DNA of 64,000 nt from a bacterium (GTDB lineage: Bacteria > Patescibacteriota > Microgenomatia > UBA8517). Made by a program: the position numbers and the translations under genes. The notes beneath the pieces are model-generated. The model was not told where the DNA came from. It made no database searches and worked only from the letters and a program-made list of their open reading frames with translations. This document shows, piece by piece, positions 36,319-55,172 of this stretch (its first letter is position 1; each line of letters starts with the position of its first letter). Location of the stretch: NCBI GenBank assembly GCA_030583725.1, contig CP129472.1, positions 75 through 64,074 on the forward strand, read 5' to 3'.

Positions 36319-36349
36319 TCTAAGGAATTTAAGTAAGAAAAATAAAAAT

Positions 36350-37414: not shown

Positions 37415-37430
37415 CATACAAGCTGCGTTT

Positions 37431-38636: not shown

Positions 38637-38674
38637 AGATAGATTATTATATGTAAGGGAGGTGAACTAAAATA

Positions 38675-39307: not shown

Positions 39308-39314
39308 TATAAGT

Positions 39315-40022: not shown

Positions 40023-40660
40023 AAAAAAATATTAAAGGCTTTACTCTAACAGAGCTGTTAATAGTTGTGGGCTTGCTCTCATTTTTAGCGCTTCTAATTA
40101 TTCTCTTTTTAAGAAATCAAGTTCACAAGGGAAATGACGCTAGAAGAAAAGCTGAGATCAAAAGAATTGGTATTGCTGCAGAGGAATATGAAAAAGATAA
40201 CGATTGCTATCCCCTTTCAAGTCTTGTGGCCTGCAATCCTGGTAGTGGTTTATTACCATATTTGGATAAAATCCCTTGTGATCCTGTAACTAAGGCCTCT
40301 TATCTCTATGAACATGAAGATTCAAGTTGTCCAAAGTGGTATAGGATTTATGGCAGACTTGATAATGAGTCAGACGTAGATAGTACCCCTTATATTGGTC
40401 CTAACTCTGCATTTGACTATGTTTACTCAAGTCCAAATGCACCCGGAGTTGTTCCGGATGTACCAGCGCCTACAGCTAGTGGCGGAGGTGGAGGTGGAGC
40501 AGGTCAAACTACTTTCTATGGCTGTTTTAGTGGGTCTTGTATGGTCGTCCAATGGGATGTATCAAGGCCTGGTCCTGCTTGTGATCCGAACTTTCAAAAC
40601 CCAACCTGCTATGGACAATGTTCAAATTTAAATAACGAATGTCAACCTTGGAATCAATAA
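40019..40660 (+). CDS. Prepilin-type protein with Gly-rich C-terminal region
   Basis: MKKNIKG|FTLTELLIVVGLL. Start overlaps the pilD stop (ATGA). SGGGGGGAGQ and a Cys-rich tail. Confidence 0.65.
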   Translation: MKKNIKGFTLTELLIVVGLLSFLALLIILFLRNQVHKGNDARRKAEIKRIGIAAEEYEKDNDCYPLSSLVACNPGSGLLPYLDKIPCDPVTKASYLYEHEDSSCPKWYRIYGRLDNESDVDSTPYIGPNSAFDYVYSSPNAPGVVPDVPAPTASGGGGGGAGQTTFYGCFSGSCMVVQWDVSRPGPACDPNFQNPTCYGQCSNLNNECQPWNQ

Positions 40661-40670
40661 ATAAGTCTTA

Positions 40671-41177
40671 ATGAAAATCAAACCATTTACATTAGTTGAA
40701 ACAAAACTATTAGCATTTATATTTTTGGTGTTGTTTGTGGTTATTGGGTTTAATATGTCAATTTCTTTAAGGCGCGGTAGGGATGCCACAAGAAAAAATG
40801 ATATTTCAGCAATTCAAAAGGGATTAGATACCTACTATCAAAAGTATCGTATTTATCCCCAATCTACATCTGATGGAAAAATGATTGGATGTTTTACTGA
40901 AGAAGCTGTGACAGACATACTAACTGGATTACCATTAAATGTGGAGGTTTGTAATTGGGGTGAATCTAATTTTGAGGGTATGTCCCCTATGCCTAGGGAT
41001 CCAAGTGATAAAAAAGGTGTAAGTTACAAGTATGTTTCAGACGAGAAAAGCTATGGTTTTTATGTTTCTTTAGAAGGTAAGGATGAACCTGAATATAATT
41101 TAGGAACACAACAATTAGGATTGCAATGTGGCACTAAAGTATGCAATTATGGAAGAGTAGTTGAAAATGAAATATAG
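40671..41177 (+). CDS. Prepilin-like protein (atypical leader MKIKP|FTLVETKLL)
   Basis: N-terminal hydrophobic helix and Glu+5-like arrangement. RGRDATRKNDIS motif shared with neighbours. Confidence 0.55.
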   Translation: MKIKPFTLVETKLLAFIFLVLFVVIGFNMSISLRRGRDATRKNDISAIQKGLDTYYQKYRIYPQSTSDGKMIGCFTEEAVTDILTGLPLNVEVCNWGESNFEGMSPMPRDPSDKKGVSYKYVSDEKSYGFYVSLEGKDEPEYNLGTQQLGLQCGTKVCNYGRVVENEI

Positions 41178-41622
41178 TAAGCAAAACTTGGCCAGTAAAA
41201 CTGGTAAAAAAGGATTTACATTAGTTGAACTTTTAGTAGCAATGGCAATTATTGGAGTTTTGGCTGCAATGGCTGTTGGTAGTTTTAGAACTGCACAATT
41301 AAGGGGTAGGGATACACAGAGAAAGTCTGATCTAAAACAGGTTTCAAATGCTTTAGAACTTTATTATGCTGATTATGGAAGGTATCCTGATAGTTTGACT
41401 TGGGGTGGAGAGTTTACTGATGGCAGAACAATTTACTTTAAGGTTTTACCAACTGACCCATCTGGTGGTGTATACACCTATACTCTAGTTGGTGCTTCTA
41501 CCCAAAAATACCAGCTTTTTGCAAGACTTGAAAATACTGAAGATCAAGACTGTATACAAGACAACTGTGCGCAGAATCCCAATTTTGCAGTTACTAGTGC
41601 TAATACAACAGCAACAGAGTAA
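41161..41622 (+). CDS. Type IV pilin / GspG-like pseudopilin
   Basis: KKG|FTLVELLVAMAIIGVLAA...RGRDTQRKSDLKQVSNALELYYADYGRYPD (GspG-like). Confidence 0.75.
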   Translation: MKMKYSKQNLASKTGKKGFTLVELLVAMAIIGVLAAMAVGSFRTAQLRGRDTQRKSDLKQVSNALELYYADYGRYPDSLTWGGEFTDGRTIYFKVLPTDPSGGVYTYTLVGASTQKYQLFARLENTEDQDCIQDNCAQNPNFAVTSANTTATE

Positions 41623-41668
41623 GCATAGCTTGCCACTAAAGTGGTAATATATAATTAAAGTCAAAGTT

Positions 41669-42121
41669 ATGAACAACAAAACAAAAAAAGGTTTTACCTT
41701 AGTCGAATTACTGGTCGTAGTTTCTTTAATTGGAGTTTTGGCAACTTTAGTTATTGCAAATATGAACTCAGCCAGAGAAAGGGCTAGAGATACTCAAAGA
41801 AAATCAGATTTTAGGAATATCCAAACAGCATTAAGGCTTTATTACAATGATAATGGAGGCTATCCAACCAGTAGTACAGATAATATTGTTGGCTGCGATG
41901 GTAATTGTGTATGGGGAGAGTCTTGGGTGAATGATGACGTGACTTATATGAACATATTGCCTGATGATCCCCTATCAAACCAGATATATAAATATACCTA
42001 TATAGATGATGATGATTATATACTTGAGGCTTGTCTTGAAAATGTCAGTGATGACAAAGGAATTGCAACCACTGACCTGGATTGGTGCCCGACTGGTTGG
42101 AAGTATGAAGTAAAACCATAA
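41669..42121 (+). CDS. Type IV pilin / GspG-like pseudopilin
   Basis: MNNKTKKG|FTLVELLVVVSLIGVLA...RARDTQRKSDFRNIQTALRLYYNDNGGYP. Confidence 0.75.
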   Translation: MNNKTKKGFTLVELLVVVSLIGVLATLVIANMNSARERARDTQRKSDFRNIQTALRLYYNDNGGYPTSSTDNIVGCDGNCVWGESWVNDDVTYMNILPDDPLSNQIYKYTYIDDDDYILEACLENVSDDKGIATTDLDWCPTGWKYEVKP

Positions 42122-42594
42122 TGAAAAAAACATTAACAACCAAAAATAAAATACAACAAATGGGTTTTACATTAGTAGAGATGCTTGTCGTCATCTCTTT
42201 AATAGGAATTTTGGCTGCCTTAGCACTTGTTTCATTTGGGTCATCTCAAAAACAAGCAAGAGATTCACAAAGAAAGTCTGATTTGAAACAATTTCAGACA
42301 ACAATTGAAAATTATGCGAGTCTAAATTCTGGACTTTATCCTGTTTACACAACTACGTTACAAATCGACTCTTCTGATAGTAATTTTTGTACCGATGAAT
42401 TAAATTTAACATCTTGCCCAATAGATCCTAAAAACACTGAGAATTTAGTTTATAAATACGTTTCAAATGCCACAGGAACCAGTTTTGTTCTCTGGACAGG
42501 TCTTGAAAATAAGGAAGTGTTTTGGGTAATTTGTAGTAGTGGTAGAAATGGAGAAAGTGATATTGCACCAAGTTCTAGTACCTGTCCTATCTAA
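42121..42594 (+). CDS. Type IV pilin / GspG-like pseudopilin
   Basis: QQMG|FTLVEMLVVISLIGILAA...QARDSQRKSDLKQFQTTIENY. TAATG overlap with the previous gene. Confidence 0.75.
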   Translation: MKKTLTTKNKIQQMGFTLVEMLVVISLIGILAALALVSFGSSQKQARDSQRKSDLKQFQTTIENYASLNSGLYPVYTTTLQIDSSDSNFCTDELNLTSCPIDPKNTENLVYKYVSNATGTSFVLWTGLENKEVFWVICSSGRNGESDIAPSSSTCPI

Positions 42595-42605
42595 ATTTTT
42601 TAATT

Positions 42606-43061
42606 ATGAATAAAAATGACAATTTTCGTTTGAAATCCAAAGGTTTTACCCTCATTGAGCTGTTGGTTGTTATATCAATTATTGGGATAGTTGTGGCAAT
42701 ATCAATTTTTGGACTATCAGGAGCTCGTGAATCTGCAAGAGACGCAAGGAGAAAGTCAGACCTTGAACTTATTAAATCTGGACTTGAAATATATAGAGCT
42801 GATTGTAATGCATATCCTGCCAATTTAAATACCTCCCCTCTTATTGGTACTGGAACACCTTCAAGTTGTGCTGTTTCAAATACGTACATTGAACTAATAC
42901 CTGAGGACCCAATTCCAGAGTCTAAAACATATAGATATGCTACAACGGCAAGTGGATATGAGCTTTGTGCTTCATTGGAACAGTCAGGATTGACTACAGT
43001 GACCTGTGGTGGCTCTTCAGACTGTGGTACCAGTTGTAATTATAGAGTGACAAATCCATGA
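42606..43061 (+). CDS. Type IV pilin / GspG-like pseudopilin
   Basis: KSKG|FTLIELLVVISIIGIVVA...SARDARRKSDLELIKSGLEIYRAD. Confidence 0.75.
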   Translation: MNKNDNFRLKSKGFTLIELLVVISIIGIVVAISIFGLSGARESARDARRKSDLELIKSGLEIYRADCNAYPANLNTSPLIGTGTPSSCAVSNTYIELIPEDPIPESKTYRYATTASGYELCASLEQSGLTTVTCGGSSDCGTSCNYRVTNP

Positions 43062-43528
43062 TTAAAAAAAACATAGGAAACAGTGGTTACACATTAATTG
43101 AACTTTTGGTTGGAATATCAATAATAGGTATTGTTTTTAGTATTGGTCTTGCAGGTTACAGAGAATTTTCAAGAAGACAGGAGTTGGTGGGGGTTATAAA
43201 AAGGATTGTTGCTGACTTAAGACTTTCCCAACAACTTGCAATTGGAGGTCAAAAACCAGAGGGTGAAGTTTGTAATGTTTTGGATGGCTACAGTTTCTCA
43301 AGAATCAGCCAAACAGAATATAATTTAATTGCCAATTGTTCAAATGCCAATCATATTATTAAGGTTGTTGAGTTACCTAGTAATGTAAGTTTAACCCAAG
43401 GTTCAGTAATGTTTAAAGCTTTGGGACAAGGCACTAATCTTGAGGAAAACTTAACTTTTACGGTTACAAATGTAGTTAGTAGCAGTACTGGTACTGTAAC
43501 AATTGGAGTAGGAGGAAATGTTGAATAA
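43058..43528 (+). CDS. Prepilin-type minor pilin (GspH/PilE-like)
   Basis: GNSG|YTLIELLVGISIIGIVF. ATGA overlap with the previous gene. Confidence 0.65.
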   Translation: MIKKNIGNSGYTLIELLVGISIIGIVFSIGLAGYREFSRRQELVGVIKRIVADLRLSQQLAIGGQKPEGEVCNVLDGYSFSRISQTEYNLIANCSNANHIIKVVELPSNVSLTQGSVMFKALGQGTNLEENLTFTVTNVVSSSTGTVTIGVGGNVE

Positions 43529-43964
43529 TAATCGAGGCCAATCAATGTTTGAAGTTGTGTTGGCTTTATTTATTATAACTATGATTATTGTAGCTGTTGT
43601 TATACTTTCAACTAATTCGATATCAAACTCACTTTTTTCAAAAAATAAAACACTTGCTGGTAGGTATTCACAGGAGGCGGTAGAGTGGCTAAGGTCAGAA
43701 AGAGAAAGTAATTTCAATAATTTTTCAGCATATGCAGATCTTCCAACATATTGTCTAGACAGTCTTAGCTTTTTAAATACTGGTTTGTGTAGTGAAAGCG
43801 AAACAATATCAGATACTGTCTTTGAAAGAACACTTTACTTCACAAAACAAGTGTCATCAGGTAAAACTATAATTGATGCAACTGTGGTCACCACATGGAC
43901 TGATTCCAAAGGTGTGCACTCATCAAGATCAGTTACAAGTTTTAATGACATTCGTGAACGATGA
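43518..43964 (+). CDS. Prepilin-type minor pilin
   Basis: NNNRG|QSMFEVVLALFIITMIIVAV with Glu+5. Confidence 0.55.
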   Translation: MLNNNRGQSMFEVVLALFIITMIIVAVVILSTNSISNSLFSKNKTLAGRYSQEAVEWLRSERESNFNNFSAYADLPTYCLDSLSFLNTGLCSESETISDTVFERTLYFTKQVSSGKTIIDATVVTTWTDSKGVHSSRSVTSFNDIRER

Positions 43965-43991
43965 TGTGATCAATAGAAAAAAATAATAATT

Positions 43992-44486
43992 ATGAAGAAG
44001 AAATTAATCAAGGGTTTAAGTTTAGTTGAAATATTAATAGTAATTTCAATCTTTGCAGTTATTGGCCTACTTTCTACAAGATCTGTGTTTTTAACATTAA
44101 GAGGTGCTAAAAAAAGTGATTCATTAGTTCGTGTTCGTGAGAATATCAATTATTCACTTGCAGTTATGGAAAGACAGATAAGAAGTGCCCAAAGTGTAAC
44201 TTGCCCTAATTTATCACCTACGGTTTTAGATTATGTTTCTATTGAAGGTAGCCAAACCTCATTTTCATGTACTTTGACAGGAAGTGACAGATATATAGCT
44301 TCAGGGTCTGCCAGATTAACATCAAATGACGTTTCTTTATTGTCTTGTAATTTTAGTTGTACACAGGATGACATAAATACACCACCTGTAGTTAGAATAC
44401 TGTTGGAGGCAACTGATTCTCAAATTACATCTGTTGAAGCAGGAACAGTTACTGCACAGACAGAAATAGTTTTGAGGAATTATTAA
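43992..44486 (+). CDS. Prepilin-type minor pilin (PilW/GspJ-like)
   Basis: MKKKLIKG|LSLVEILIVISIFAVIG with Glu+5. Confidence 0.6.
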   Translation: MKKKLIKGLSLVEILIVISIFAVIGLLSTRSVFLTLRGAKKSDSLVRVRENINYSLAVMERQIRSAQSVTCPNLSPTVLDYVSIEGSQTSFSCTLTGSDRYIASGSARLTSNDVSLLSCNFSCTQDDINTPPVVRILLEATDSQITSVEAGTVTAQTEIVLRNY

Positions 44487-45130
44487 GTCTTAAGCATAGC
44501 CAGTTGGTACTTTTTAACCTCATTTGTAATTACTGTTTTTGCTTCTTGCCATGAAAAATTGGGATCAAGTAACTTAATTGACCTTTTGGTTTCTTTACCT
44601 TCAGCATCATCATAATAAGTTAATGCACGTAGTATCAAATACTCATTAAAATTTTTGTACTTTCGATATGCGAAAGTCATCATCTCTTCAAGGCTAAAAT
44701 TATTTAATAAGTAAAAAATATCAATATAGTCCCTTTTTGCTGGTCTATGACTAACTGAGAGTAGTTTCATTGCTGCGATATCTTTTAGGCCTGCGAGATT
44801 TATGCCTATTTCTGTTTTTACCTTATCTATAAGAGGATACTGGTACCAAAAAAAAGAACATTCAACATCTTTTATTATTACAAATACCGTGTCTTTTTCT
44901 ATTAATGTCACTTTAGCGTCTGATCCAAAAACTTTACTTATTTTGTCTACTAGTTTGGCTGAGTCAAAATGTTTTTGAATAAAAAAGTCAAAATCTACTG
45001 ATGTTCTATGGCCAATTAATAAAGCAAGTGATGTCCCCCCTGCTAGATAGAATCCGTCGTTTGATAAAAATTTTAGCTTTGGCAAGACTTCTTGCTGGTT
45101 TTTATTCAAAATTGAAGTAAAAAATTTCAT
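44483..45130 (-). CDS. Nucleotidyltransferase AbiEii/AbiGii-like toxin family protein
   Basis: N-terminal FYLAGGTSLALLIGHRTSVDFDFF pattern typical of the AbiEii minimal nucleotidyltransferase fold. Convergent with the last pilin, with a 4-nt overlap. Confidence 0.55.
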   Translation of the reverse strand: MKFFTSILNKNQQEVLPKLKFLSNDGFYLAGGTSLALLIGHRTSVDFDFFIQKHFDSAKLVDKISKVFGSDAKVTLIEKDTVFVIIKDVECSFFWYQYPLIDKVKTEIGINLAGLKDIAAMKLLSVSHRPAKRDYIDIFYLLNNFSLEEMMTFAYRKYKNFNEYLILRALTYYDDAEGKETKRSIKLLDPNFSWQEAKTVITNEVKKYQLAMLKT

Positions 45131-45155
45131 AGTATTTAATACTGAATTTCATAAG

Positions 45156-45446
45156 TTAAGCCTCGAGGCTTATAATTGCCTTTTCAAATTTATTTTTTGA
45201 TAGGCTAATTTCAAATATATTCAACCAATACTTCAAGACACTACTCATCCAATATCCACGCAGGGGTGAGGCTACTGCATTTTTAATATCTCTCTTTGAA
45301 TAATTTTCTGTTAACCAGCGAAGAGCTTTACCATCCCCTTTATTTAATATCTCTGTAATAATTATCTCTCTGTCATTAACAATATCAAGTTGACTCAGAT
45401 CGTAAGAAGCTAAATATGGTTTTAAGTGTGAAGGTATGTTTGGCAT
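45156..45446 (-). CDS. Small hypothetical protein upstream of AbiEii-like gene (possible cognate partner/antitoxin)
   Basis: 96 aa, same strand, 25-nt gap to the toxin-like gene. No HTH recognised. Confidence 0.4.
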   Translation of the reverse strand: MPNIPSHLKPYLASYDLSQLDIVNDREIIITEILNKGDGKALRWLTENYSKRDIKNAVASPLRGYWMSSVLKYWLNIFEISLSKNKFEKAIISLEA

Positions 45447-45465
45447 ACAGTGTTATTATACCACA

Positions 45466-45506
45466 TTATGGTGCCACCTTAAGCCCATTTGGCCCTTTTG
45501 AATTGG
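45466..45506. repeat. Copy 1 of ~41-46 nt conserved element TTATGGTGCCACYTNNRGYCCATTTGRCYNNTTTNAAYTG
   Basis: Direct comparison with the copies at 47522 and 48049. Confidence 0.7.
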
Positions 45507-45744
45507 GAGCAAAACTATTCAATAATTCATGTTGTGCGTATAGGCGCAATATTTAATTAGTTCCTTGAACTTGAGGTTTTGTAATTGAATATTTTTCTTG
45601 TTTCTTATCTGTTAATTTATTGCCGGCTGGAGTGTTTAGATCTTTTATTGTAATGTTATCTCCTTTTCGCTGTGGAACAGAGATTTTCTCAAGATTTGGA
45701 TCAATAGGATTGTTTTTCTTTTCTATCATATTTGATATTGTATA

Positions 45745-46926
45745 TCACTTTATGAAATTTTGTATAATTGTTGAAAGTGCCACTGCATGAGGAAGATTAG
45801 AAAATGGCTTACTAATTATGAGGTTGTCGAGAATATATGATCTGTTTCTAAGTTCATTTGATCCTCTAAAACATTTATTAAATATTGAGGCGTAAACACT
45901 ATCGAAATCTAGATTAGGTTTTCTGTATATTTCTATTTCAAACAAAACCCTATGAAAGACTTTCAGAAATTCTCCGAAAATAGAATTATATACTTCGGTC
46001 GAAATTACCTTCAGAATATCCAATTCTATCTTTGTGGTTTGTAGTTCGTTAAAATATGAGCCCTTTTCCTCTGGTAAAATTTCATTTTTATAACATCCAA
46101 TACGATGAATTATATGAGATAATTCGTGAATAAGGTCAATTGACTGATGTTTTAAATTTTGATTTTTATCTATCTGCACCTTAAACCTATCAGTTTCTTT
46201 TATATAATTCGACTGTGAGAAGTCGCCAAATTCGATATCAACTTTTGATTTATACATACTAATAACAACGTTATTGCTTGACATATAATGTGTTACATCA
46301 CCTAAATTACCGAATGGAAAGTTTTTTAGATTACATAAAGAGCAATGATTTCCAAATTCGGAAAAAAAGTCTTTCTCTAGATTATTGTGTGTTGTATGAC
46401 TGTTACAAAATTCAATAACTTTATTATTATTTCTAATGAAATCCTTATAGACTGATTTAGGAATCTTATATAAATCCAGATAATAATCGACAAACACTTC
46501 GTATCCTTTTGCAAAGACTAACTCTTTCCTTTGCGCTATCAAGTTGGAAAATGATTCTTCAATTCTTTTGTACGGCAACCTAAATTTTTCCCAAACACCA
46601 CCTCTTTTTTCAGGTTGAGAACCCCAAATCTCATTTTGTAATTTAGTTCGAAGCTCGGGGTGGTAAGTAATAAAAAAATCCACAGATGCCTGGTAACTTG
46701 ATGGATTTATATTTTTAAATTCAACTTCTGCTCTATCGCGAACCTTTACATCGTATATCCAATTCCTAATATATAATTCTTCAGACATTAATTTTGGAGC
46801 TGCTAACTTTCTATATTTAATTCTTGCCTGTTTTGTAGATTCACTCACAAGGATATTCATGTCTATATTATATAAGGTAAATCGGAGAAAAGGTAATACG
46901 TGTGTATTTAAAGTGCTGGTGCACAC
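45745..46926 (-). CDS. Hypothetical protein with HExxH zinc-metallopeptidase motif
   Basis: LIHELSHIIHRIG. No other family assignment. N-terminal start uncertain. Confidence 0.45.
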   Translation of the reverse strand: MCTSTLNTHVLPFLRFTLYNIDMNILVSESTKQARIKYRKLAAPKLMSEELYIRNWIYDVKVRDRAEVEFKNINPSSYQASVDFFITYHPELRTKLQNEIWGSQPEKRGGVWEKFRLPYKRIEESFSNLIAQRKELVFAKGYEVFVDYYLDLYKIPKSVYKDFIRNNNKVIEFCNSHTTHNNLEKDFFSEFGNHCSLCNLKNFPFGNLGDVTHYMSSNNVVISMYKSKVDIEFGDFSQSNYIKETDRFKVQIDKNQNLKHQSIDLIHELSHIIHRIGCYKNEILPEEKGSYFNELQTTKIELDILKVISTEVYNSIFGEFLKVFHRVLFEIEIYRKPNLDFDSVYASIFNKCFRGSNELRNRSYILDNLIISKPFSNLPHAVALSTIIQNFIK

Positions 46927-46962
46927 CTTTTCTCCTTCCAGAAATCTATTTAATTGTTAGAA

Positions 46963-47214
46963 CTACCAACCGCCACCACCAAAATCTGGTGGAGGTACTC
47001 TGTCAGCATCTTGATTGCATCCACCACTACCGCCGCGACTGTAGTCACTTTCAATTCCTTGGTTGGAATTGATAGCGCCACCAGGGGTGTTGTGCAGATT
47101 TCCTTGCAGGTCTGGATACATGATCCGACCTCCTACGGGAATACCGCCTTGTGGAATTTGCTGGTCAGATTGATTGGCATCATTCGGATCGGGTAAACCA
47201 TTTGGTCCACTCAT
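46963..47214 (-). CDS. Small Gly/Pro/Asn-rich protein ending GGGGW
   Basis: 83-aa low-complexity ORF (GGIPVGGRIMYPDLQGNLHNTPGGAINSNQG...SRGGSGGCNQD...PPPDFGGGGW). No signal peptide. Could be a spurious ORF. Confidence 0.3.
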   Translation of the reverse strand: MSGPNGLPDPNDANQSDQQIPQGGIPVGGRIMYPDLQGNLHNTPGGAINSNQGIESDYSRGGSGGCNQDADRVPPPDFGGGGW

Positions 47215-47521
47215 GTGCCATTCTCCTTTTTGCGAAAAGTAAAATCCGCATACGTGCGGTCTGCGATGACTTAAATTTTTGGTGTTGTTACCAATTTTTA
47301 ATCAGTTCCAGTTTGACAACTCGGTTTGGATTTTTAAACCACGCACTATGTGGAATCCAGTGGTCGAAAATGGAATACAGATCTACTGAAGGTTTCAAAA
47401 CCTCAACTTAAGGATCTTCCTCGTGATGTTGTACATCACACCTAATTTAAAGGTGCAAGCAGAACTATATCAGAAATGATCAAATTGTCAATGAAGCTTT
47501 GATAGTTTAGCGTGGCTGAGT

Positions 47522-47567
47522 TTATGGTGCCACTTTAAGTCCATTTGACTGGTTTAAACTGAAGTTG
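47522..47567. repeat. Copy 2 of conserved ~45-nt element
   Basis: 14 nt downstream of the stop of minus-strand gene 47584-48015. Confidence 0.7.
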
Positions 47568-47583
47568 TTAACGCAAACTCAAC

Positions 47584-48015
47584 TTAAGCGCCAAAATCCA
47601 TTATAGGTAATCCAACATATTTTTGAATTGATTGAATATTATGTATTACTTTAATATTTTGCTTATCGTGAAAATCAAAATCTTTTTCGACTACTTTTTT
47701 AACTTTTTTAACATCTGTCTTTACAGATGTCATGTCTTTTTGTAATTTCTCTACACCATCTTTAAGTCCTGACACGTCAGTTTTAAGTCCTGACACGTCA
47801 GTTTTAAGTCCTGACACGTCAGTTTTAAGTCCTGACACGTCAGTTTTAAGTCCTGACACGTCAGTTTTAAGTTCTGACACGTCAGTTTTAAGTCCTGACA
47901 CGTCAGTTTTAAGTCCTGCTGTATCAGTTTTTAATATCTTTATATCAGATATAATTGGCTTCAGCTTAGTATCGAGTACTTCACTAATAGAATTTAGATC
48001 TTGTTTAGTTAACAT
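47584..48015 (-). CDS. Tandem heptad-repeat protein (LKTDVSG x about 9), coiled-coil-like
   Basis: Encoded by 8 tandem copies of a 21-bp unit. Flanking sequence is non-repetitive. Confidence 0.55.
   Translation of the reverse strand: MLTKQDLNSISEVLDTKLKPIISDIKILKTDTAGLKTDVSGLKTDVSELKTDVSGLKTDVSGLKTDVSGLKTDVSGLKTDVSGLKDGVEKLQKDMTSVKTDVKKVKKVVEKDFDFHDKQNIKVIHNIQSIQKYVGLPIMDFGA
47762..47929. repeat. Tandem repeat, 21-bp unit TTAAGTCCTGACACGTCAGTT x8 (6 perfect, 2 variant)
   Basis: Read directly from sequence. In-frame within CDS 47584-48015. Confidence 0.9.
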
Positions 48016-48048
48016 ATTTTAATAATACACTGTGTACAAAAGCTGTCA

Positions 48049-48093
48049 ATTATGGTGCCACTTCTGCCCATTTGGCCCTTTTGAATTGAAGTT
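48049..48093. repeat. Copy 3 of conserved ~45-nt element (forms the last 12 codons and stop of CDS 48050-49675)
   Basis: Reverse complement encodes ...LQFKRAKWAEVAP*. Confidence 0.7.
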
Positions 48094-49675
48094 GATTTGG
48101 GAAAAGCATCATTTGATCAGGTGCAAATTCAACAAGTTCTGCAGGAGTTGAGTTGTCTAGTAGTTCTCTTTCTAGCAATACACTACCATATGAGGCCAAG
48201 GATCCTCTTAAGTGCAGTTGTGTATCCCCTGCCCCTGTTGATATATTATTATCAGCCATATAAATTCCTTCAATCGCAGGACTACCACTAACTGCAGAAT
48301 CAATTGTTATATTTCCATTTACAAAGCTTGCAAAAAAACCAACTCCATCTGTTAGGTTTATATTACCGTTGATATTAAAGTTGCCTTCTTCAACAAACAA
48401 GACTACTTTTCTGGTAGTTATATCAATATCCCCCACAGTATCTAAGTTGCCAACAACCTTGTACCACTCATATCCATTTGAATCAACAACTACTCCCCCA
48501 CTTGGTAAGTCATTAATGTCATTAAAAACAATATCGTTAGGTATTAAATTTTCAAAATAACTATAATTAAATATTCTACTTAATGTTGAAGTAGTATTAG
48601 CATTCCAAATATTAACAGATATCCTTTCAGGAGTGTCTAAGTATAAATTAAGAGAAGTACCATAGACTGCAACACCTGAAAAACCACCTAAGCCATCACT
48701 TAAGAAATAATTACCAGCGGGAACTAAAGAACTTAATACCCCATTTGTTGTAACATCACCATCCATTACTTGCCACCATGGCTCGTTTGCAACAGGTGTT
48801 AAAAAACTATAATTTGTAGAAGAAGAACAACTTACACTTTGATAATTAACAATTTTTACAAAGTAAATGGTATCAGGAAGTAGGGGTGAAACAAAAGGAT
48901 AGAAGTCAGTACTACTTGCCAAATTTGCATTAACAGTACAACTAGTTCCTGTACCACAATTATTAGTTACATCGCTTTGCGTAGTTGAAACATATAAATT
49001 TTGAGACGCTCCATTAGTACCAGTTGTCCAAGTTAATAAATCATCACTAAAACTTACAGCAGAAGGTGCTGTGGTATTACAAGTAGAAAGACACTCATAG
49101 GTGTTGGCTGTGCGTCCGCTACATGTTGTAGTAGCAGGCCAACAATCCCATCTAATACAACTAGTTCTACCCGTATTTGGGTTGGTCCAATACTGTTCAC
49201 ATTCTCCACAACCTGCGGGTGTTGTTGTACATCCACACTCTGATCCTTCACTTTGTGCCGATCCTAGTTGAAACCATCCATTACAATGCCAGATCGAACC
49301 CTTACTTACACACTGTGAACCAATCAGATTATTTGTCTTTACTGTCCCCGAAGGACAGTTTACGACCCATGTGGGGTTGCATTGCGACTCACAACTTCTA
49401 CAACTCCCATTATTCGTCGTCCCGCACGGGCACGCGCTAGGGGGTGGAGTTGCACTACCACCACAGTTATCACCCCAAAGTGTGCAGGATGGTGATGAAC
49501 CACCAGAACAGTTGTCTGCTCCGCCACATGTACAATCACCACTTGCTTCTGAGCCACTTGAGGTTACACATATACAATCATCCAAACATTGAGCATTTAC
49601 ATCTTTTGTGGAAAAACCAAAAAGAAAAAAAATTGCAAAAATTAGAAATAATATAATTTTAAATATTTTTGACAT
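48050..49675 (-). CDS. Large secreted Cys-rich hypothetical protein
   Basis: Signal peptide (MSKIFKIILFLIFAIFFLFGFS). About 40 Cys in the N-terminal 200 aa. No domain recognised. Confidence 0.55.
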   Translation of the reverse strand: MSKIFKIILFLIFAIFFLFGFSTKDVNAQCLDDCICVTSSGSEASGDCTCGGADNCSGGSSPSCTLWGDNCGGSATPPPSACPCGTTNNGSCRSCESQCNPTWVVNCPSGTVKTNNLIGSQCVSKGSIWHCNGWFQLGSAQSEGSECGCTTTPAGCGECEQYWTNPNTGRTSCIRWDCWPATTTCSGRTANTYECLSTCNTTAPSAVSFSDDLLTWTTGTNGASQNLYVSTTQSDVTNNCGTGTSCTVNANLASSTDFYPFVSPLLPDTIYFVKIVNYQSVSCSSSTNYSFLTPVANEPWWQVMDGDVTTNGVLSSLVPAGNYFLSDGLGGFSGVAVYGTSLNLYLDTPERISVNIWNANTTSTLSRIFNYSYFENLIPNDIVFNDINDLPSGGVVVDSNGYEWYKVVGNLDTVGDIDITTRKVVLFVEEGNFNINGNINLTDGVGFFASFVNGNITIDSAVSGSPAIEGIYMADNNISTGAGDTQLHLRGSLASYGSVLLERELLDNSTPAELVEFAPDQMMLFPNQLQFKRAKWAEVAP

Positions 49676-50147
49676 ATATTGGTAATTTGAAAAAATTATT
49701 AAACTGATTTTGTTGTGTTACTTCTTCCTTTCCTTGATAGAATTGAATTACATTTAAAGTATATTCTTTAATTTGATGTTCTGCATCACTAGATCTTAAA
49801 ACATTTTCTGATACGTAAATATAAATCAAAACCTCGTTTAAACTTAATATGTCAATTGTTGATCCAAAGTCTATTTTTTGATTGTCATCTATATATTGAT
49901 AACTTGGTCTTACTTTGTCTGTATAGACTATCGCAATGGACTTGGGTTTAATTCCTTTAATTAAAAATTTGTTTAATTTTAAAGAAAAATTTAAGTAAAT
50001 ATCAAGAATTATAGGGTTCTTGTTTTCAATCCTCAAAGACCCAATTCTTGAGTTGAAAAAAACTGGCGTGGAAGTTAATTTTAAATAAAAAACAACTGAA
50101 GCCAAAAACAAAACAAACAAACTTGAAAAAATAATTAACTTTTTCAT
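49659..50147 (-). CDS. Hypothetical membrane-anchored protein
   Basis: N-terminal TM helix. 162 aa. Overlaps the downstream gene by 17 nt. Confidence 0.45.
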   Translation of the reverse strand: MKKLIIFSSLFVLFLASVVFYLKLTSTPVFFNSRIGSLRIENKNPIILDIYLNFSLKLNKFLIKGIKPKSIAIVYTDKVRPSYQYIDDNQKIDFGSTIDILSLNEVLIYIYVSENVLRSSDAEHQIKEYTLNVIQFYQGKEEVTQQNQFNNFFKLPIYVKNI

Positions 50148-50175
50148 TCTAATTAAAGACTACACTATTTTGAAG

Positions 50176-51891
50176 TTATTGTGAAGGGTCTTTGAAATTT
50201 ATTCCCTCGATTTCTAAAAAGTTCCGTGATTGACGGGCATATGATCTTAAATTTGATTTACCAGCGACCATCATTCCCATAGAATCAAATATTCTGTATA
50301 CAACTTGAGCTTCGTAGAAGTCAGTTATCATTTTTCTATCAGAATCATTTAATGTGTGGCTATCATTATTGTATCCCCAACGTTCTGCTGCTGTTGATAT
50401 AGAGTAGATGACTATCTGTCCATTTGGTTTGGTCCATAATAAATAACCAAAGGTACTATCGACAATTGTATTTTTAGATTTTTGATCATTAATTAAATCA
50501 TTTTTAATTTCATCTGGTAGTGAATTATATTCATCCGCAGTCATTATCGTTCTAATTTCTATTGGTAGATTAAAATTTGCAGGGTGCTCCAGTGATTTCA
50601 TCTTGGAAGTCGCATACGGATCAGATCTAACGCCATAGGCAACTTTAAAGTTAAATATTCCATCATTTTTAACCATTACATGCTCAAATGCTTGTTCTGG
50701 GGTGGCAAAACCCAATTGATGTGCCAGTGAGTTCCACATATTGGCGTCATTTTTGCCTTCTGGCATTCCTACAATTCCTTTTGAGGTTCGGTCAGTAACT
50801 GAAAAAATACCAGTAGAACTCCATTTTGGATCAATGTAAGTATAGAAACTATGGTCATTACCTTCACCGTCTTTGACAATATGTTCCCCCACTCTTGTCA
50901 TCCTCATTTGTCCATCAATTTCCATTTCCATAGCAATAACTTGTTTAGTTTCATCACTCTTAATGCCATATATAACTTTAGTATCAACCCCATTTACTTG
51001 TTTTACACCATATTCAAACGTTTCAAATTGATTTTTATATTTATCTGTCATTTCAGCTGGAAATACAACGCCCCCAACAGGCACCTCAACTTTAACAAGT
51101 GAGGCCATTTTTACATTGAATATCTCTTGTGGTGACACAAGTAAACCTCCTGGTATGAAAAGTATATCTCGTGCCTCAATTTCTTCATTGGTCATCTGTG
51201 AAAGTTCAACTTCTGTCAACTCCGTGTTAAAAATCATAATAGATTTATCCAAATCCGCACCCGTAGCTGGATCCTGAGTTATACCAAGTCCTACTCTTCC
51301 TTCGGCATCAATAATCCTGTTTAAAACAATATAGATAACTTCACCCTGGTCTCCGCCAAAGATCATTGCTGTTCTACTTTTTTCTTCAACTTCAGAAGTG
51401 GCATTAAAGAATACATAAGTTGTTTCTTTTCCAGTAATGTCAACTGTTTTAACTCCAGATGCGGAGTATTCAATTGTGCTTGGATCTTCAAAAAGGTCTT
51501 TTATTCGTTGGTCCTCACCAAAGGCTCTAAACGGACCAGGTAGTTTGGAAATTATTTCGGATTCTTCAACAAACTCATAGGACATTGTAGCGTTGACTTC
51601 ACTAGTGGAAGTTGGAATTACAAACGGTTTTTCTGTTGGGGCAATTTCAGTCGTATTTTGATTATTTGATGATGTTACTTCAGGATTTATACCGTTTTTT
51701 ATACATGCCAATGATGTCCCAGCTATTGCTGCAGTGAGACTACCCCTGATAAACAATTTTGTTGTGTCTGTTAATCTATCGCTCATATTTAATTTATCAA
51801 CTTGTTTTTCTATTATTCCCTCAACACCAATATTCCATAAATCTGATTGACTAATTCTTCTCCCTAACCGTATTATTCTATCCTTATTCAT
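50176..51891 (-). CDS. Large hypothetical protein (571 aa), probably exported
   Basis: Weak signal-like segment (SLTAAIAGTSLACIKNG, lipobox-like). No domain recognised. Confidence 0.5.
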   Translation of the reverse strand: MNKDRIIRLGRRISQSDLWNIGVEGIIEKQVDKLNMSDRLTDTTKLFIRGSLTAAIAGTSLACIKNGINPEVTSSNNQNTTEIAPTEKPFVIPTSTSEVNATMSYEFVEESEIISKLPGPFRAFGEDQRIKDLFEDPSTIEYSASGVKTVDITGKETTYVFFNATSEVEEKSRTAMIFGGDQGEVIYIVLNRIIDAEGRVGLGITQDPATGADLDKSIMIFNTELTEVELSQMTNEEIEARDILFIPGGLLVSPQEIFNVKMASLVKVEVPVGGVVFPAEMTDKYKNQFETFEYGVKQVNGVDTKVIYGIKSDETKQVIAMEMEIDGQMRMTRVGEHIVKDGEGNDHSFYTYIDPKWSSTGIFSVTDRTSKGIVGMPEGKNDANMWNSLAHQLGFATPEQAFEHVMVKNDGIFNFKVAYGVRSDPYATSKMKSLEHPANFNLPIEIRTIMTADEYNSLPDEIKNDLINDQKSKNTIVDSTFGYLLWTKPNGQIVIYSISTAAERWGYNNDSHTLNDSDRKMITDFYEAQVVYRIFDSMGMMVAGKSNLRSYARQSRNFLEIEGINFKDPSQ

Positions 51892-52075
51892 TTATAGATC
51901 TTAACCTAAAACCTACAAATTTTCAAGGCTAGACAATATACTACAGGATATAATTTTGTTTGTCAAGTTGGTTGGGAGGGGTAAAGAAAAAGGGTTAGAA
52001 ACAAATTGTGAATATTTTTTACTAATTCTCACATTTTAATTGTACCATATTTTAAATTTATGATATATTTAGAAT

Positions 52076-52897
52076 ATGACAAGAAAGAACCAAAAAGGTC
52101 AGGCTGTTTTAGTTGTTCTTTTGTCATTGTCTGTAGTTTTGATTATAGTTTTGTTCATCCTCTCTCGTTCAATTACTGATATTTCCCTTTCAACTAAAGA
52201 AGAAGACTCACTTCGTGCTTTTTCTGCAGCTGAAGCTGGTGTTGAGAGGGCTTTGGTTATTGGTAATAGTAGTGGAAGTCTAGATGATGCTGAGTTTAGT
52301 GCTTTGGTTACTCAATTTGCCAGTGGGGCTGATCAAGTTACCTACCCACTTGCCTTAAAGTCTGGTGAAAATGCCGTTTTCTGGTTTAAAAGAGCTGGAG
52401 AGGTAACTCAGTTTAATGGAAGTAATATTAGATTCTGCTGGGGAAATGCTGGTACTAACCCTGCAGACAGTGATACTCCTGCCTTGGAAGTTACTTTTTA
52501 CTACACTACCCTACCTGATGATATGACAACCCTACAAATTGAAAGGGCTGTCTATGACCCCAATGTTTCAAGGGTTACTGCAAACCGTTTTGATAATGCA
52601 CAAATTTCAAGTTGTACAATAGGACAAGATAGTTTTGCTTTTCAAGCAACTATTGACACTCCTACTGGTACCTTAGAATATGCAACTGCAAAACTTTTGT
52701 ACAACACCACAAATGCACATAAAGTGGGTATAAATGTGGCTTCAACTGGCTCAATTCTTCCTTCTCAGGGTGAAAAAGTTGAGTCTGCAGGTTCATATGG
52801 GGATGCAAACAGAAGTATAGAAGTATATCAATTGCATCCTGAAACCCCACCCATTTTTGCTAATGCAATCTTTAGCGCAAATGGTATAGTTAAGTAA
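52076..52897 (+). CDS. PilX-like type IV pilus assembly protein
   Basis: N-terminal QKGQAVLVVLLSLSVVLIIVLFILS followed by AFSAAEAGVERAL matches the PilX N-terminal pattern. Directly upstream of pilMNO. Confidence 0.55.
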   Translation: MTRKNQKGQAVLVVLLSLSVVLIIVLFILSRSITDISLSTKEEDSLRAFSAAEAGVERALVIGNSSGSLDDAEFSALVTQFASGADQVTYPLALKSGENAVFWFKRAGEVTQFNGSNIRFCWGNAGTNPADSDTPALEVTFYYTTLPDDMTTLQIERAVYDPNVSRVTANRFDNAQISSCTIGQDSFAFQATIDTPTGTLEYATAKLLYNTTNAHKVGINVASTGSILPSQGEKVESAGSYGDANRSIEVYQLHPETPPIFANAIFSANGIVK

Positions 52898-52913
52898 TTA
52901 GGAAAAACTGCCC

Positions 52914-53921
52914 ATGGTCGGAATAGATATAGGAACAAAAAGTATTAAAATTATTGAACTTGCCCAAAGTGGCAATTCTTGGGTGTTAAAAGCTTCAGGG
53001 GCAGTTGGTTATGCTGGTGTTTCTCCTGATAAGGCACAAACAGATGAAGAATTAAATGCAGTTTCAGAAGTTTTAAAAAAAATTATTAACCAGATAGGTG
53101 TTAACACAAAGGACGTTAACTTGTCTTTGCCTGAATCCTTAGTTTTTACCCGTGTCATTAAGTTTCCATTACTTTCAGATGAAGAAGTATCAGCTGCAGT
53201 TAAGTGGGAAGCTGAACAATATATACCTATACCCACCGCAGAAGCTGTCATCCAATATACAGTTTTAAGTAGAAATGAAACCACTTCCCAAACATCAGTC
53301 CTTCTAGTTGCAGCCCCAAAGGCAATTGTTGAAAAATATGTCAAAGTGGCAAGACTTGCAGGCTTAACACCTGTTGCTGCAGAAACTGAACTAACTGCCA
53401 TGGCAAGGTCACTCTCACCTGATAAAGGTGTATCTCTTCTTTTAGACTTAGGTTCATCTGCGACTGATATGTCAATTGTCAAAGATACAAAAGTAGTTTT
53501 TACAAGATCCATACCTGTTGCTGGTGAAGCTTTTACAAGAGCGGTCTCACAAGGTTTGGGTATTAATGCCCAACAGGCTGAGGAGTACAAAAAAACATAT
53601 GGACTATCAACAGATCAATTAGAAGGAAAGGTAAGGCAAGCACTTGAACCTATTTTTAAAATGGTAATTGATGAAATCAAAAAAGCAATTCATTTCTATC
53701 AGTCTGAGGAAAAAGGAGATACTCCAACTTCAGTAATTATCACAGGGGGTGCTTCAACAATGCCTGATATTGTTACCTATTTAACAGAAAGCTTAGGAAT
53801 TGAAACAGTTGTAGGTAGTCCGTTTGCAAAAATAAATCTTGACTCTGAAACCTTGAAAGGTTTAGCTCCATATGCTTCAATCTATGCTGCAGCTGTGGGG
53901 CTAGCTATGCGCAATGAATAA
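52914..53921 (+). CDS. pilM: Type IV pilus assembly protein PilM (actin-like ATPase fold)
   Basis: MVGIDIGTKSIKIIELAQ, LLLDLGSSATDMSIV, IITGGAST. Confidence 0.85.
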   Translation: MVGIDIGTKSIKIIELAQSGNSWVLKASGAVGYAGVSPDKAQTDEELNAVSEVLKKIINQIGVNTKDVNLSLPESLVFTRVIKFPLLSDEEVSAAVKWEAEQYIPIPTAEAVIQYTVLSRNETTSQTSVLLVAAPKAIVEKYVKVARLAGLTPVAAETELTAMARSLSPDKGVSLLLDLGSSATDMSIVKDTKVVFTRSIPVAGEAFTRAVSQGLGINAQQAEEYKKTYGLSTDQLEGKVRQALEPIFKMVIDEIKKAIHFYQSEEKGDTPTSVIITGGASTMPDIVTYLTESLGIETVVGSPFAKINLDSETLKGLAPYASIYAAAVGLAMRNE

Positions 53922-54489
53922 TACTATGGAAAATCAAAGCTTGCCAGTTCGTGGTAAAAATATAAACTTAATTCCAACAGAAATGGCAGTACCTGCACGT
54001 GCTGTCAAAGTGGCTAAAGTAATATCTAAATTTTCAGTAGTTGGTTCGATTGTACTTTTGCTAGTAATCCTCTCTTTAGGTTCATATTATATTTATTTGC
54101 GCTTAGAAAATGAGAAAGTTACTTCAAGCGTTAACACTTTAAAGCAAACCATTTCAGACTTGAGCCAAAACGAACAAAAATTAATTTTGGCAAAAGATAG
54201 ATTATCAAAAATAACTGTGGTCAGAAAAGCAGAATCTGCAAATTCTGAGGTTAAAAGATATCAAAATTTTTTAAGTCAAGTTGTTGGCACTGTGGGTACT
54301 CAAATTACAGAGGCAACCCTTACCACCAAAGGAACTGAGATTACTATAACAGCAGATAGTTCTCAAAATTTGTCAGGGATACTTAAAACAATATCAAATG
54401 TGCTGGAGTACGAAAGAATAGTTGTATCATCCTTAGCTTATAATCCTGGGTCAGGTTTTGTAGCGAACATCCTATTCGAAAATAAGTAA
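53914..54489 (+). CDS. pilN: PilN-like type IV pilus assembly protein
   Basis: Short cytoplasmic N-terminus, single TM (VVGSIVLLLVILSLGSYYIYL), periplasmic coiled coil. Overlaps pilM by 8 nt. Confidence 0.6.
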   Translation: MNNTMENQSLPVRGKNINLIPTEMAVPARAVKVAKVISKFSVVGSIVLLLVILSLGSYYIYLRLENEKVTSSVNTLKQTISDLSQNEQKLILAKDRLSKITVVRKAESANSEVKRYQNFLSQVVGTVGTQITEATLTTKGTEITITADSSQNLSGILKTISNVLEYERIVVSSLAYNPGSGFVANILFENK

Positions 54490-54494
54490 ACAAT

Positions 54495-55172
54495 ATGAAC
54501 ACAAATACTAAAAACGAAATCAACTTTCTTTTAAAGCCTGTAATTATTTTTTCTTCAGTTTTAATTCTAATTATTTTTTCTTTTGTTATTGGTTTAAGAA
54601 ATATATCCAATTTGCAAAGCAATATAACAGCAAACAAGACAACAGAAAACACATTGTCTAAAAAAGTATTGGCTTTAGAAACTGTTAGTAGGACCCTACC
54701 AGGAGATGTTACTTTTTTGGATGTGGTTTTACCAAGTAAAGGTTCAGTTTTATATGCTCTAAGTCAGATCAGAACACAATCTTTAAATAATAATTTAAAC
54801 GTTTCAAACCTAAAAACAGGAAATGTAATACCTGAAAGTTCTGGAGTCATGAAGTCTTCAGTTAGCTTCGAGGTAGAAGGTCAAGAGTCTGACGTTTTTA
54901 CTTTTTTAAGTTCTTTGGGTACAGTACTCCCTTTAATTAATATTGATAAAGTTAGTTTTAATAGCTCTCTTGGATTATCAAGGGCTAATATATCAGTTAA
55001 TGTCTATTCAGCAGAACTTCCTAAAACAATACCATCTTTAACAGGTGTTGTTAGTGAGTTAACAAGTCAAGACATCACTCTTTTAAATGAGTTGGCAGGG
55101 TATACTTTGCCACAATTTATAGAACCAACAATTGAAGAAGCTCCATCACAGAAAACTGATCCATTTAACTAA
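54495..55172 (+). CDS. pilO: PilO-like type IV pilus assembly protein
   Basis: Single TM (VIIFSSVLILIIFSFVIG) then periplasmic domain. Position after pilM/pilN. Confidence 0.55.
   Translation: MNTNTKNEINFLLKPVIIFSSVLILIIFSFVIGLRNISNLQSNITANKTTENTLSKKVLALETVSRTLPGDVTFLDVVLPSKGSVLYALSQIRTQSLNNNLNVSNLKTGNVIPESSGVMKSSVSFEVEGQESDVFTFLSSLGTVLPLINIDKVSFNSSLGLSRANISVNVYSAELPKTIPSLTGVVSELTSQDITLLNELAGYTLPQFIEPTIEEAPSQKTDPFN

Follow-up and report, generated by a model that had tools for sequence, protein, structure and literature searches.

A reiterated gene end bounds gene cassettes beside the type IV pilus genes of a Woesebacteria-like bacterium

Introduction

This study concerns a minus-strand gene block (44483–51891) among the type IV pilus genes of an ultra-small, Woesebacteria-like bacterium of the candidate phyla radiation (CPR, Patescibacteria), in which the last ~45 nt of one gene recur as the boundary of small gene cassettes. 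The whole 64,000-nt stretch of contig CP129472.1 that was analyzed is referred to below as the window. Several described systems resemble this arrangement. The pdif modules and the integrative mobile elements exploiting Xer (IMEX) encode no recombinase of their own, are bounded by short sites, often carry toxin-antitoxin (TA) cargo and are moved in trans by the host XerC/D recombinases. In capsule and O-antigen loci, and for the genes next to Pseudomonas pilA, a variable slot is swapped through crossovers in the conserved flanks. ICESt1/fda is reportedly an example of the accretion of cis-mobilizable elements (CIMEs) and integrative and conjugative elements (ICEs) at a gene 3′ end. Integrase-less CIMEs accrete with ICEs or with integrative and mobilizable elements (IMEs) at the 3′ end of the target gene (PMC5704250).

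As in integrons and in clusters of attC sites without an integrase (CALINs), short cassettes, here mostly of 0.3–1.5 kb with some larger, are split by direct site-like repeats beside a fixed anchor gene, the cargo is rich in TA pairs and uncharacterized small genes, and the content differs between strains. Unlike integrons, however, these arrays have no IntI, only Xer-like genes 4–30 kb away (in the window and in the related loci L014 and L063), their repeats reproduce the coding 3′ end of the anchor gene and are not folded attC hairpins, and the cassettes, found in both orientations, have promoters of their own. The likeness to CIME accretion is that direct repeats hold a conserved gene end, that elements without integration genes accumulate in tandem, and that a displaced copy of the gene end, the structural mark of such accretion, lies beside the original flank; in contrast, about 75 loci held no cognate integrase-bearing element, the units are much smaller, and repeat length and breakpoints vary. 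With pdif modules and IMEX the arrays share recombinase-free modules, short sites and TA cargo, and an Xer-like gene is present in this genome, but the repeat lacks two recognizable dif-like arms and its copies are all direct instead of alternating. Finally, as in capsule, O-antigen and pilA-type exchange, strains swap the content of a variable slot next to surface-structure genes, whereas the flank here is only about 45 nt long and is reiterated, giving a multi-cassette array. Full-text literature searches returned no report of integron-like cassette arrays of this kind in CPR bacteria.

Results

The window has a low GC content of about 0.35. On its plus strand the pilus locus comprises pilB, pilT, pilC, a pilin gene, pilD and about ten pilin genes (34585–44486), the last of which occupies 43992–44486 in the list of open reading frames (ORFs); beyond the minus-strand block follow a pilX-like gene and pilM/N/O (52076–55172). 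The original prediction had interpreted eight consecutive minus-strand ORFs between the last pilin and pilX as one horizontally acquired block. All eight are present in the ORF list where it placed them, and a ninth, of 58 aa (45553–45729), was absent from its list. We compared the block with 23 loci from species-representative genomes and 60 metagenome loci (labels beginning with L). Its 541-aa protein is 100% identical to the NCBI protein QY322_00300 of a metagenome-assembled genome (MAG), and its relatives come from Woesebacteria/Microgenomates MAGs.

Three copies of a repeat of about 45 nt had been reported in the block, and all three were recovered on the minus strand, as copy C (48050–48094), copy B (47522–47567) and copy A (45466–45507). 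The repeat is not an anonymous element. In the repeat alignment, copy C is the functional coding 3′ end of the 541-aa gene, encoding ...NQLQFKRAKWAEVAP before the stop codon, and the peptide encoded by the 45-nt repeat is the C-terminus of the 541-aa protein (...QFKRAKWAEVAP, then stop). Copies B and A contain an internal stop and an indel and do not code; their right boundary, at the same TAA, is that of copy C. Copy B is a displaced, decayed gene end with an in-frame TAA, and copy A a displaced gene end that occupies the ancestral position and immediately precedes the promoter TGTGGTATAAT and the gene for a DUF6922 protein. A 14-mer common to the copies gave five matches at up to two mismatches, against 0.58 expected from shuffled sequences. 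The ~60 nt before the DUF6922 gene (copy A, TGTGGTATAAT and ATG) align with the intact gene end, TGTAGTATAAT and ATG of locus L008, and copy A therefore marks the former end of the 541-aa gene. As judged from this alignment, about 2.5 kb (45508–48049) appear to be inserted between the functional end and the old end of the gene.

Only 45447–48049 is variable. In L004, L007 and L030 the corresponding site is empty, and the gene end lies 0–60 nt from the pilin. Horizontal acquisition, proposed for the whole block, would fit this part but not the syntenic module of three genes (48050–51891) or the TA pair next to the pilin; conservation at the same position in relatives, which speaks against it, extends over about half of the block. 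On balance, and as one element of a joint explanation, we regard the block as a composite of three layers and not as a single acquired island. Cassette 1 (48049 to 47522) consists of a near-consensus candidate promoter, a gene of heptad repeats and copy B, and cassette 2 (47521 to 45466) of a variant of a 16-nt motif, a second near-consensus candidate promoter, a leader, a Gly-rich gene, a hairpin, an HExxH gene, the 58-aa ORF and copy A.

The 16-nt motif, GATTCAGCTACGCTAT, of which the variant following copy B lies at 47505–47521, stands directly after the stop codon in L003 (1176, 7855 and 10998), L036 (3336), L037 (9906 and 9924, in tandem) and L042 (14402). Since about eight chance matches at up to three mismatches are expected in the 1.1 Mb scanned, only this positional pattern is notable; the motif may mark a cassette end or a recombination site. 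The motif was also seen after the stop of a pilin gene in L002 (19141–19156, minus strand), at the edge of a two-gene insertion within the pilin cluster. Single-stranded DNA folding of ten repeat copies gave z-scores of −1.46 to +0.96, no more stable than shuffled sequences and with no attC-like structure, and a dif-like site (28 nt, XerC/XerD arms, 6–8-nt spacer) was unrecognizable by eye in the aligned copies. Some copies bear a partial ...CATAA resemblance to dif; the stop codon (TAA, TGA or TAG) and the right flank vary.

Thirteen or more further CPR loci have this pattern downstream of genes of the 541-aa protein's family, and the number of direct repeats reaches six. Downstream copies of the 3′ end were found in L002, L003, L005, L011, L012, L015, L016, L042, L050, L052/L094, L054, L063, L092 and L093. 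Fifty-one loci had an intact gene followed by 1.5 kb or more of sequence; 10 of them carried at least one copy, and every copy was direct. Counted with the resident end, the arrays hold three repeats in the window, six in L042, four in L003 and three in L093, again all direct. Intervals between repeats range from 319 to 5769 nt and repeat lengths from about 25 to 135 nt. The copies of 87–105 nt in L012, L005 and L052 are 94–100% identical to the resident end. A remnant type reading '...LGFRxTRWSEVAP' recurs in L002, L003 and L042 and matches the intact end of family member P0107; by sequence, these copies look like donor-like repeats.

The cargo of these arrays is diverse. The five downstream copies of L042 delimit cassettes of 319–1450 nt with an AAA_14/DUF4143 ATPase and two DUF6922–AbiEii pairs, one of them inverted, and the three of L003 are accompanied by MNT–HepT (twice), Fic, CYTH, HIT, Gly-rich plus HExxH, NUDIX, family-2 glycosyltransferase and polysaccharide deacetylase genes. 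L093 combines a HicAB cassette with a DUF433–DUF5615 cassette, L063 has Gly-rich and HExxH genes, a repeat and Fic, and single types of cargo were recorded in L011 (MNT), L016 (DUF5674) and L012 (an isoprenoid gene set). In L002 a 5-kb island of PIG-L, WbqC, NAGPA and NUDIX genes precedes the distal copy, which is 13 nt away from the pilin, and in L050 genes for a C39 peptidase and an AMP-binding enzyme precede it, at 7 nt from the pilin; in both loci the distal copy abuts the pilin as the gene end does at empty sites. In L092 a repeat, a homologue of the heptad gene with three heptads and the pilin follow one another, and the downstream remnant of L015 is in two pieces with an internal deletion. 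Cargo ORFs read into the repeat in L052/L094, where AbiEii ends ...HWKEVAP, and in L054, where a peptidase-MA-like ORF does so and the pilin is next. In L005 (641–4677), a complete-looking cluster of the thiazole/oxazole-type peptide kind forms one unit between the gene end and a 91-nt copy. Its YcaO protein was confirmed by Pfam; a small Cys-rich peptide of 75 aa, the putative precursor, and a putative SagB-like dehydrogenase, phosphatase and kinase were assigned by sequence inspection only.

Swapping at the gene end was observed between strains represented by four haplotypes on Hainich aquifer contigs. Over the last ~870 nt of the gene, three positions distinguish L036 from L037, yet the DNA that follows is unrelated. 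The downstream DNA of L036 is that of L003 (0/300 mismatches), and the downstream DNA of L037 is that of L038 over 4.5 kb. At the polymorphic sites −52, −27 and −4 all four pairwise allele combinations occur, with −4 linked to the downstream type; more than one interval therefore contains breakpoints, and these lie inside the final ~50 nt of the gene.

Screening for integrases covered about 75 loci. Among the 95 ORFs of array-bearing loci that were screened, none inside an array had a Phage_integrase domain, and the only matches were two Xer-like genes of L063 outside its array. No integrase-bearing element was found at the same site in the 23 genome and 60 metagenome loci, whole genomes not being searched. 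Xer-like genes occur only outside the arrays, 30 kb off in the window, 4 kb in L014 and 4–6 kb in L063. That of the window (17098–18030, plus strand) encodes a XerC/D-like tyrosine recombinase of 310 aa, the sole such ORF from a motif screen of the window that was less than an exhaustive domain scan. L014 encodes a homologue (68% identity) 4 kb downstream of its family gene, and L063 encodes two in tandem. Viral contigs were scanned for the 3′-end motif, as an attP-bearing phage might carry it, and gave three matches, all in high-GC phages, not above a rough chance estimate and none in a family member. On L032, a high-GC phage contig, a 154-aa protein (12490–12954) beside a 905-aa ORF ends ...PPEFIEFPEYLL...KWPEVAP. 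This end resembles the C-terminal ~30 residues of the family, a similarity that is probably due to chance, given how the match was selected.

The gene whose end is reiterated is the third of the three-gene module and anchors the array (48050–49675, minus strand). Its 541-aa product is, as had been proposed, Cys-rich (28 Cys) with a signal-peptide-like N-terminus, and is predicted to be secreted. A variable N-terminal part precedes a conserved C-terminal domain of ~250 aa ending in KWAEVAP, and we name the family KWxEVAP. The terminal residues of 29 close homologues are K/R-W-x-E-V/I-A-P, and the domain has invariant W, G, R and E positions before its W-x-E-[VI]-A-P end, a pattern that the 541-aa protein fits. 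A profile of the C-terminal ~250 aa retrieved 3107 cluster representatives at E<=1e-3, 1858 of them at E<=1e-10; among the 150 representatives listed, the domain stood at the extreme C-terminus in nearly all, and the N-terminal regions were of very unequal length. No Pfam or NCBIfam model matched the domain. The variable N-termini of family members include HINT or pretoxin-HINT domains (PF07591, PF14890) in P0018, P0021 and P0029, and TSP1 or Big_2 domains in others. An AlphaFold2 (AF2) model of the 541-aa protein, with a mean predicted local distance difference test score (pLDDT) of 63, has an FN3-like domain at about residues 190–295 and a confident beta-rich C-terminal domain at residues 370–500, with weak similarity to ice-binding proteins and beta-helices (PDB profile E=0.029; Foldseek E above 0.01); all these structural similarities, FN3-like and ice-binding or beta-helix alike, have E values above 0.001.

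The first gene of the module (50176–51891, minus strand) encodes a 571-aa exported protein or lipoprotein. Export, already predicted for it, is backed by a degenerate Tat-type signal and by homologues that carry SRRDFLK Tat motifs, one of them with PF10518. Homologues lie at the same position in L002 and L013. The protein had no match in Pfam, NCBIfam, PHROG or PADLOC, and its AF2 model (pLDDT 57) had no fold match in the PDB, none having E below 0.3. The second gene (49659–50147, minus strand) encodes a 162-aa protein in which inspection bore out the suggested membrane anchor, a hydrophobic stretch at the N-terminus. Most related loci inspected have a 160–255-aa protein with a hydrophobic N-terminus at this position, and mutual sequence similarity among these proteins is undetectable. 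Across the 23 and 60 loci the family gene is usually preceded by proteins of ~160–255 aa and ~450–800 aa, divergent in sequence and fixed in position.

At least 10 loci (L004, L006–L010, L013, L030 and others) have the module on the opposite strand between pilX and the last pilin, and loci syntenic with the window also share NusB, RNase III, S16 and KH genes past pilO. Distant family members retain the three-gene arrangement yet lie outside pilus loci, so the pilus association is lineage-specific synteny and not proof of joint function. With the same measured confidence that applies to our explanation as a whole, we take 48050–51891 to be a resident, outward-facing module that is a fixed part of the pilus locus in one Woesebacteria lineage. 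Judged by its export signals and position, it may act at the cell surface, possibly with the pilus. The surface or adhesion role alongside the pilus that had been suggested for the whole block is a reasonable supposition for these three genes; it does not fit the cassette genes, because their products lack export signals. PilY1-type pilus tip adhesins are encoded with minor pilins (PMC7541494). The 541-aa protein resembles them in its large size and export, in the minor pilin genes around its own gene and in its variable N-terminal and conserved C-terminal parts, but its gene lies on the opposite strand and in a three-gene unit that is also found away from pilus genes. Neither the 541-aa nor the 571-aa protein matched the PilY1 C-terminal beta-propeller in Pfam or NCBIfam, and their fold searches gave FN3-like, weak beta-helix or no similarity. 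A second variable slot, between pilX and the module, holds MNT–HepT and Fic genes in L030 (6783–8061) and a DUF6922–AbiEii pair in L013 (4226–5147); TA genes therefore gather at both junctions of the module.

At the pilin side of the block (44483–45130, minus strand) a gene encodes an AbiEii-family nucleotidyltransferase toxin of 215 aa. This assignment, made earlier from sequence, is matched by Pfam PF08843 (E=1.2e-14, 55 bits against a cut-off of 22.5) and by PADLOC AbiEii models, and the stop codon overlaps that of the last pilin by 4 nt, the convergent overlap noted before. Its small partner ORF (45156–45446, minus strand) encodes a 96-aa DUF6922 protein (PF21956, E=3.8e-7), the presumed antitoxin. 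DUF6922 adjoins AbiEii in at least eight pairings or loci (L008, L009, L013, twice in L042, L081, L089 and L094), and the pair directly follows the family gene in L008 and L081 and lies next to the last pilin in L008 and L009. The two genes probably form a TA or abortive-infection module. As in AbiE (AbiEi/AbiEii) type IV TA and abortive-infection systems, an AbiEii nucleotidyltransferase toxin is tightly linked to a small upstream partner gene; here, in contrast, the partner is the 96-aa DUF6922 protein instead of an AbiEi-type regulator, and the toxin is short (215 aa). No AbiEi-type antitoxin or regulator was recognized, the partner matching DUF6922 only. Within our joint explanation, the ancestral place of the pair is reasonably likely to have been directly after the 541-aa gene.

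The two best promoter matches of the block lie right after copies C and B. The candidate after copy C (48022–48049, minus strand; TTGACA-16-TATTAT, 11/12) starts one base past the stop of the gene and would drive cassette 1. The cargo of this cassette (47584–48015, minus strand) is a 143-aa coiled-coil protein of LKTDVSG heptads, containing the expected 21-bp tandem array (47761–47918, minus strand; 7.5 copies, 98% matches). In L092 (197–487) a homologue with only 3 heptads comes after a repeat copy and directly adjoins the last pilin. With about 9.5 LKTDVSG units in the window against 3 in L092, the copy number of the 21-bp array varies among relatives; the Logan contig L001 breaks within this array.

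After copy B, a candidate promoter (47464–47491, minus strand; TTGACA-16-TATAGT) precedes a non-coding region of ~230 nt, conserved in an alignment with L003, that may be a leader or a small RNA (47233–47491 including the promoter, minus strand). It ends in a terminator-like hairpin, CCGCACGTATGCGG plus a T-run (47246–47259, minus strand), and the candidate RNA itself would span 47233–47462 (minus strand). Identity to L003 is about 90% by eye and 80% by blastn over 560 nt of leader and Gly-rich ORF, and the leader looks more conserved than the adjacent HExxH protein (60% identical aa between window and L003). Copies lie at 1200–1500 and 5160–5460 in L003 and at 7350–7680 in L028/L029; the second L003 copy precedes an MNT–HepT pair, not Gly-rich and HExxH genes. 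The terminator stem has one compensatory change, and the consensus folding had only four, very similar sequences. Rfam searches of 44000–52500 found no match in the leader or repeats. The region is a candidate small RNA or riboswitch-like leader.

The cargo of cassette 2 begins with a Gly-rich peptide of 83 aa (46963–47214, minus strand), whose composition (18 G) agrees with the earlier description. It is probably a real gene, because differences from its L003 homologue fall mainly at third codon positions, as read from the alignment. Homologues lie upstream of HExxH genes in L003, L063 and L028/29. A perfect hairpin with an 11-bp stem, GGAGAAAAGGT / ACCTTTTCTCC (46884–46935, minus strand), between the Gly-rich and HExxH genes is conserved in L003 and L028 and resembles the attenuators that follow precursor genes in peptide operons. 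The HExxH motif that had been reported is HELSH, in an ORF with a GTG start (45745–46926) whose first 22 codons overlap this conserved hairpin. The gene probably starts at the ATG at 46860 instead (45745–46860, minus strand; 371 aa), which the 371 aa of NCBI record QY322_00285 fit. Its product belongs to a small uncharacterized family found in unrelated genomic contexts (L025–L029), and in L003 and L063 a repeat copy comes after the gene. Gly-rich peptide, hairpin and HExxH gene together form a module that is itself conserved in unrelated contexts (L028/29, L063), and its layout resembles an operon of a precursor peptide and processing enzyme. The conserved 58-aa ORF (45553–45729, minus strand) has an L052 homologue (55% over 56 aa). 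In NCBIfam, PHROGs and PADLOC the block proteins gave only AbiEii and non-specific coiled-coil matches.

The foreign composition that might be expected of an acquired block was not found: GC, third-position GC (GC3) and codon-usage distance of the block genes lie within the distribution of the window, except for the short Gly-rich ORF (GC 0.50). The 162-aa gene has a low overall GC of 0.24. Elsewhere in the window, gyrA (21093–25148, minus strand; 1351 aa) contains an intein (Intein_splicing, E=2.5e-25), and a 456-aa radical SAM/SPASM protein that may modify peptides is encoded just past the pilus locus (57022–58392, plus strand).

Discussion

The best explanation of the block, which we hold to be probably correct with considerable room for doubt, combines a resident module, an ancestral TA pair and cassettes landing on a conserved gene end. 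The conserved 3′ end of the gene would be both the substrate for recombination and the landing site, and recombination within the final ~45 nt of the 541-aa gene would have brought in the two cassettes (45447–48049). Each unit would consist of its own promoter, cargo and a copy of the gene 3′ end, with copy A as the displaced copy left beside the original flank. Once duplicated, the 3′ end could serve as a portable homology arm, so that anything between copies might be gained, lost or exchanged among strains. A linear donor of gene body, cassette and repeat could enter a naive recipient by double crossover, its arms matching adjacent parts of the gene, and the direct repeats would then permit cassette loss.

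Pilus machinery of this kind is used for DNA uptake in other bacteria. We infer that the exchange is mainly homology-driven (RecA-type recombination on a short conserved end after DNA uptake) and not the work of a dedicated integrase, because repeat length varies from ~25 to 135 nt, the right boundary is the end of coding conservation, the breakpoints are unfixed and no integrase is linked to the arrays. The roles of CPR pili are discussed elsewhere (PMC11623550).

Several observations weigh against this explanation. Neither a recombinase nor a circular intermediate was observed. Some copies share only 12–25 identical nt with the resident end, which is short for RecA-type recombination unless the copies decayed after insertion, and copy B is about 80% identical to it. 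Copy B, the nearest to the gene, is also more diverged than copy A, contradicting a 'newest is closest' order unless B arrived with a cassette from a different donor. A site-specific component is hinted at both by the many left boundaries at −40 to −50 and by the presence of GATTCAGCTACGCTAT after the stop in a subset of copies. Some 'cassettes' span 4–6 kb and carry housekeeping-like genes, such as the isoprenoid genes of L012. The link of module and pilus is one of synteny only, with distant family members lying outside pilus loci, and homologous exchange alone leaves the origin of the first duplication unexplained.

A trans-acting site-specific recombinase is a serious rival to homology-driven exchange. 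The repeats would then be attachment (att) sites, and integrase-less cassettes would integrate and accrete through a tyrosine recombinase encoded elsewhere, for example a host Xer-like enzyme such as those encoded in the window (17098–18030) and near the arrays of L014 and L063. The repeats flanking the cargo are all direct with cargo in either orientation, arrays reach six sites, left boundaries cluster at −40 to −50 with an identical core at the stop codon, and some copies share identical cores of only 12–25 nt; GATTCAGCTACGCTAT after the stop in L003, L036, L037 and L042, with its variant at copy B, and the precedent of CIME accretion at target-gene 3′ ends (PMC5704250) point the same way. 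We nevertheless rate this alternative as somewhat unlikely: across about 75 loci the arrays contained no integrase and had none as a consistent neighbor, repeat length ranges from 25 to 135 nt with breakpoints in at least two intervals, and the copies show neither attC-like folding nor, by eye, a dif-like XerC/XerD arm pair, with a stop codon that varies among TAA, TGA and TAG.

Two further readings fare much worse. Full-length tandem paralogues in L020 and L021 and the pseudogene-like remnant of L015, in two pieces with an internal deletion, would suit the view that the copies are the last pieces of decayed tandem 541-aa paralogues into which unrelated genes later drifted. Almost every remnant, however, is the extreme 3′ end only and always extends up to the stop, cassettes of as little as 319–560 nt could not have accommodated a former gene, the cargo between the copies is intact, precisely placed and equipped with its own promoters, whole cassettes distinguish near-identical strains, and the 87–105-nt copies that are 94–100% identical in L012, L005 and L052 indicate recent duplication; we find this reading very improbable. 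Slightly less probable still is the single horizontally acquired island of surface or adhesion cargo. The opposite strand, the export of several products and the poor conservation between genomes, or lack of recognizable counterparts, of the first two module proteins would agree with it, but it is contradicted by the synteny of module and TA pair in many relatives, composition and codon usage are not deviant, the internal repeats split the block into separate units, and the cassette products lack export signals.

The main interest of the locus is the reiterated gene end that organizes an integron-like array without a linked integrase, and not cargo interrupting a pilus locus. We put forward only tentatively, as a possibility short of probable, that Woesebacteria and related Microgenomates possess a new cassette-capture platform, in which the last ~45 nt of a KWxEVAP gene act as an attachment site and then, reiterated, as the cassette boundary. 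Such a platform would build integron-like arrays of defense, TA and surface-modification genes without a linked integrase, run by a trans-acting recombinase or by short-homology recombination after pilus-mediated uptake.

Uncharacterized items brought to light here are the KWxEVAP family (3107 representatives, with members in pilus loci), the module of peptide and HExxH protein, and a candidate structured RNA. Further arrays could be located through repeated occurrences of the short gene end that encodes KWxEVAP. CPR bacteria have tiny genomes, and the ways in which they acquire and rearrange accessory genes are poorly understood. As a hot spot that recurs and is defined by sequence, collecting TA, Fic, nucleotidyltransferase, glycosyltransferase and ribosomally synthesized and post-translationally modified peptide (RiPP) genes, the gene end would provide a concrete, testable route for gene flux in these organisms.

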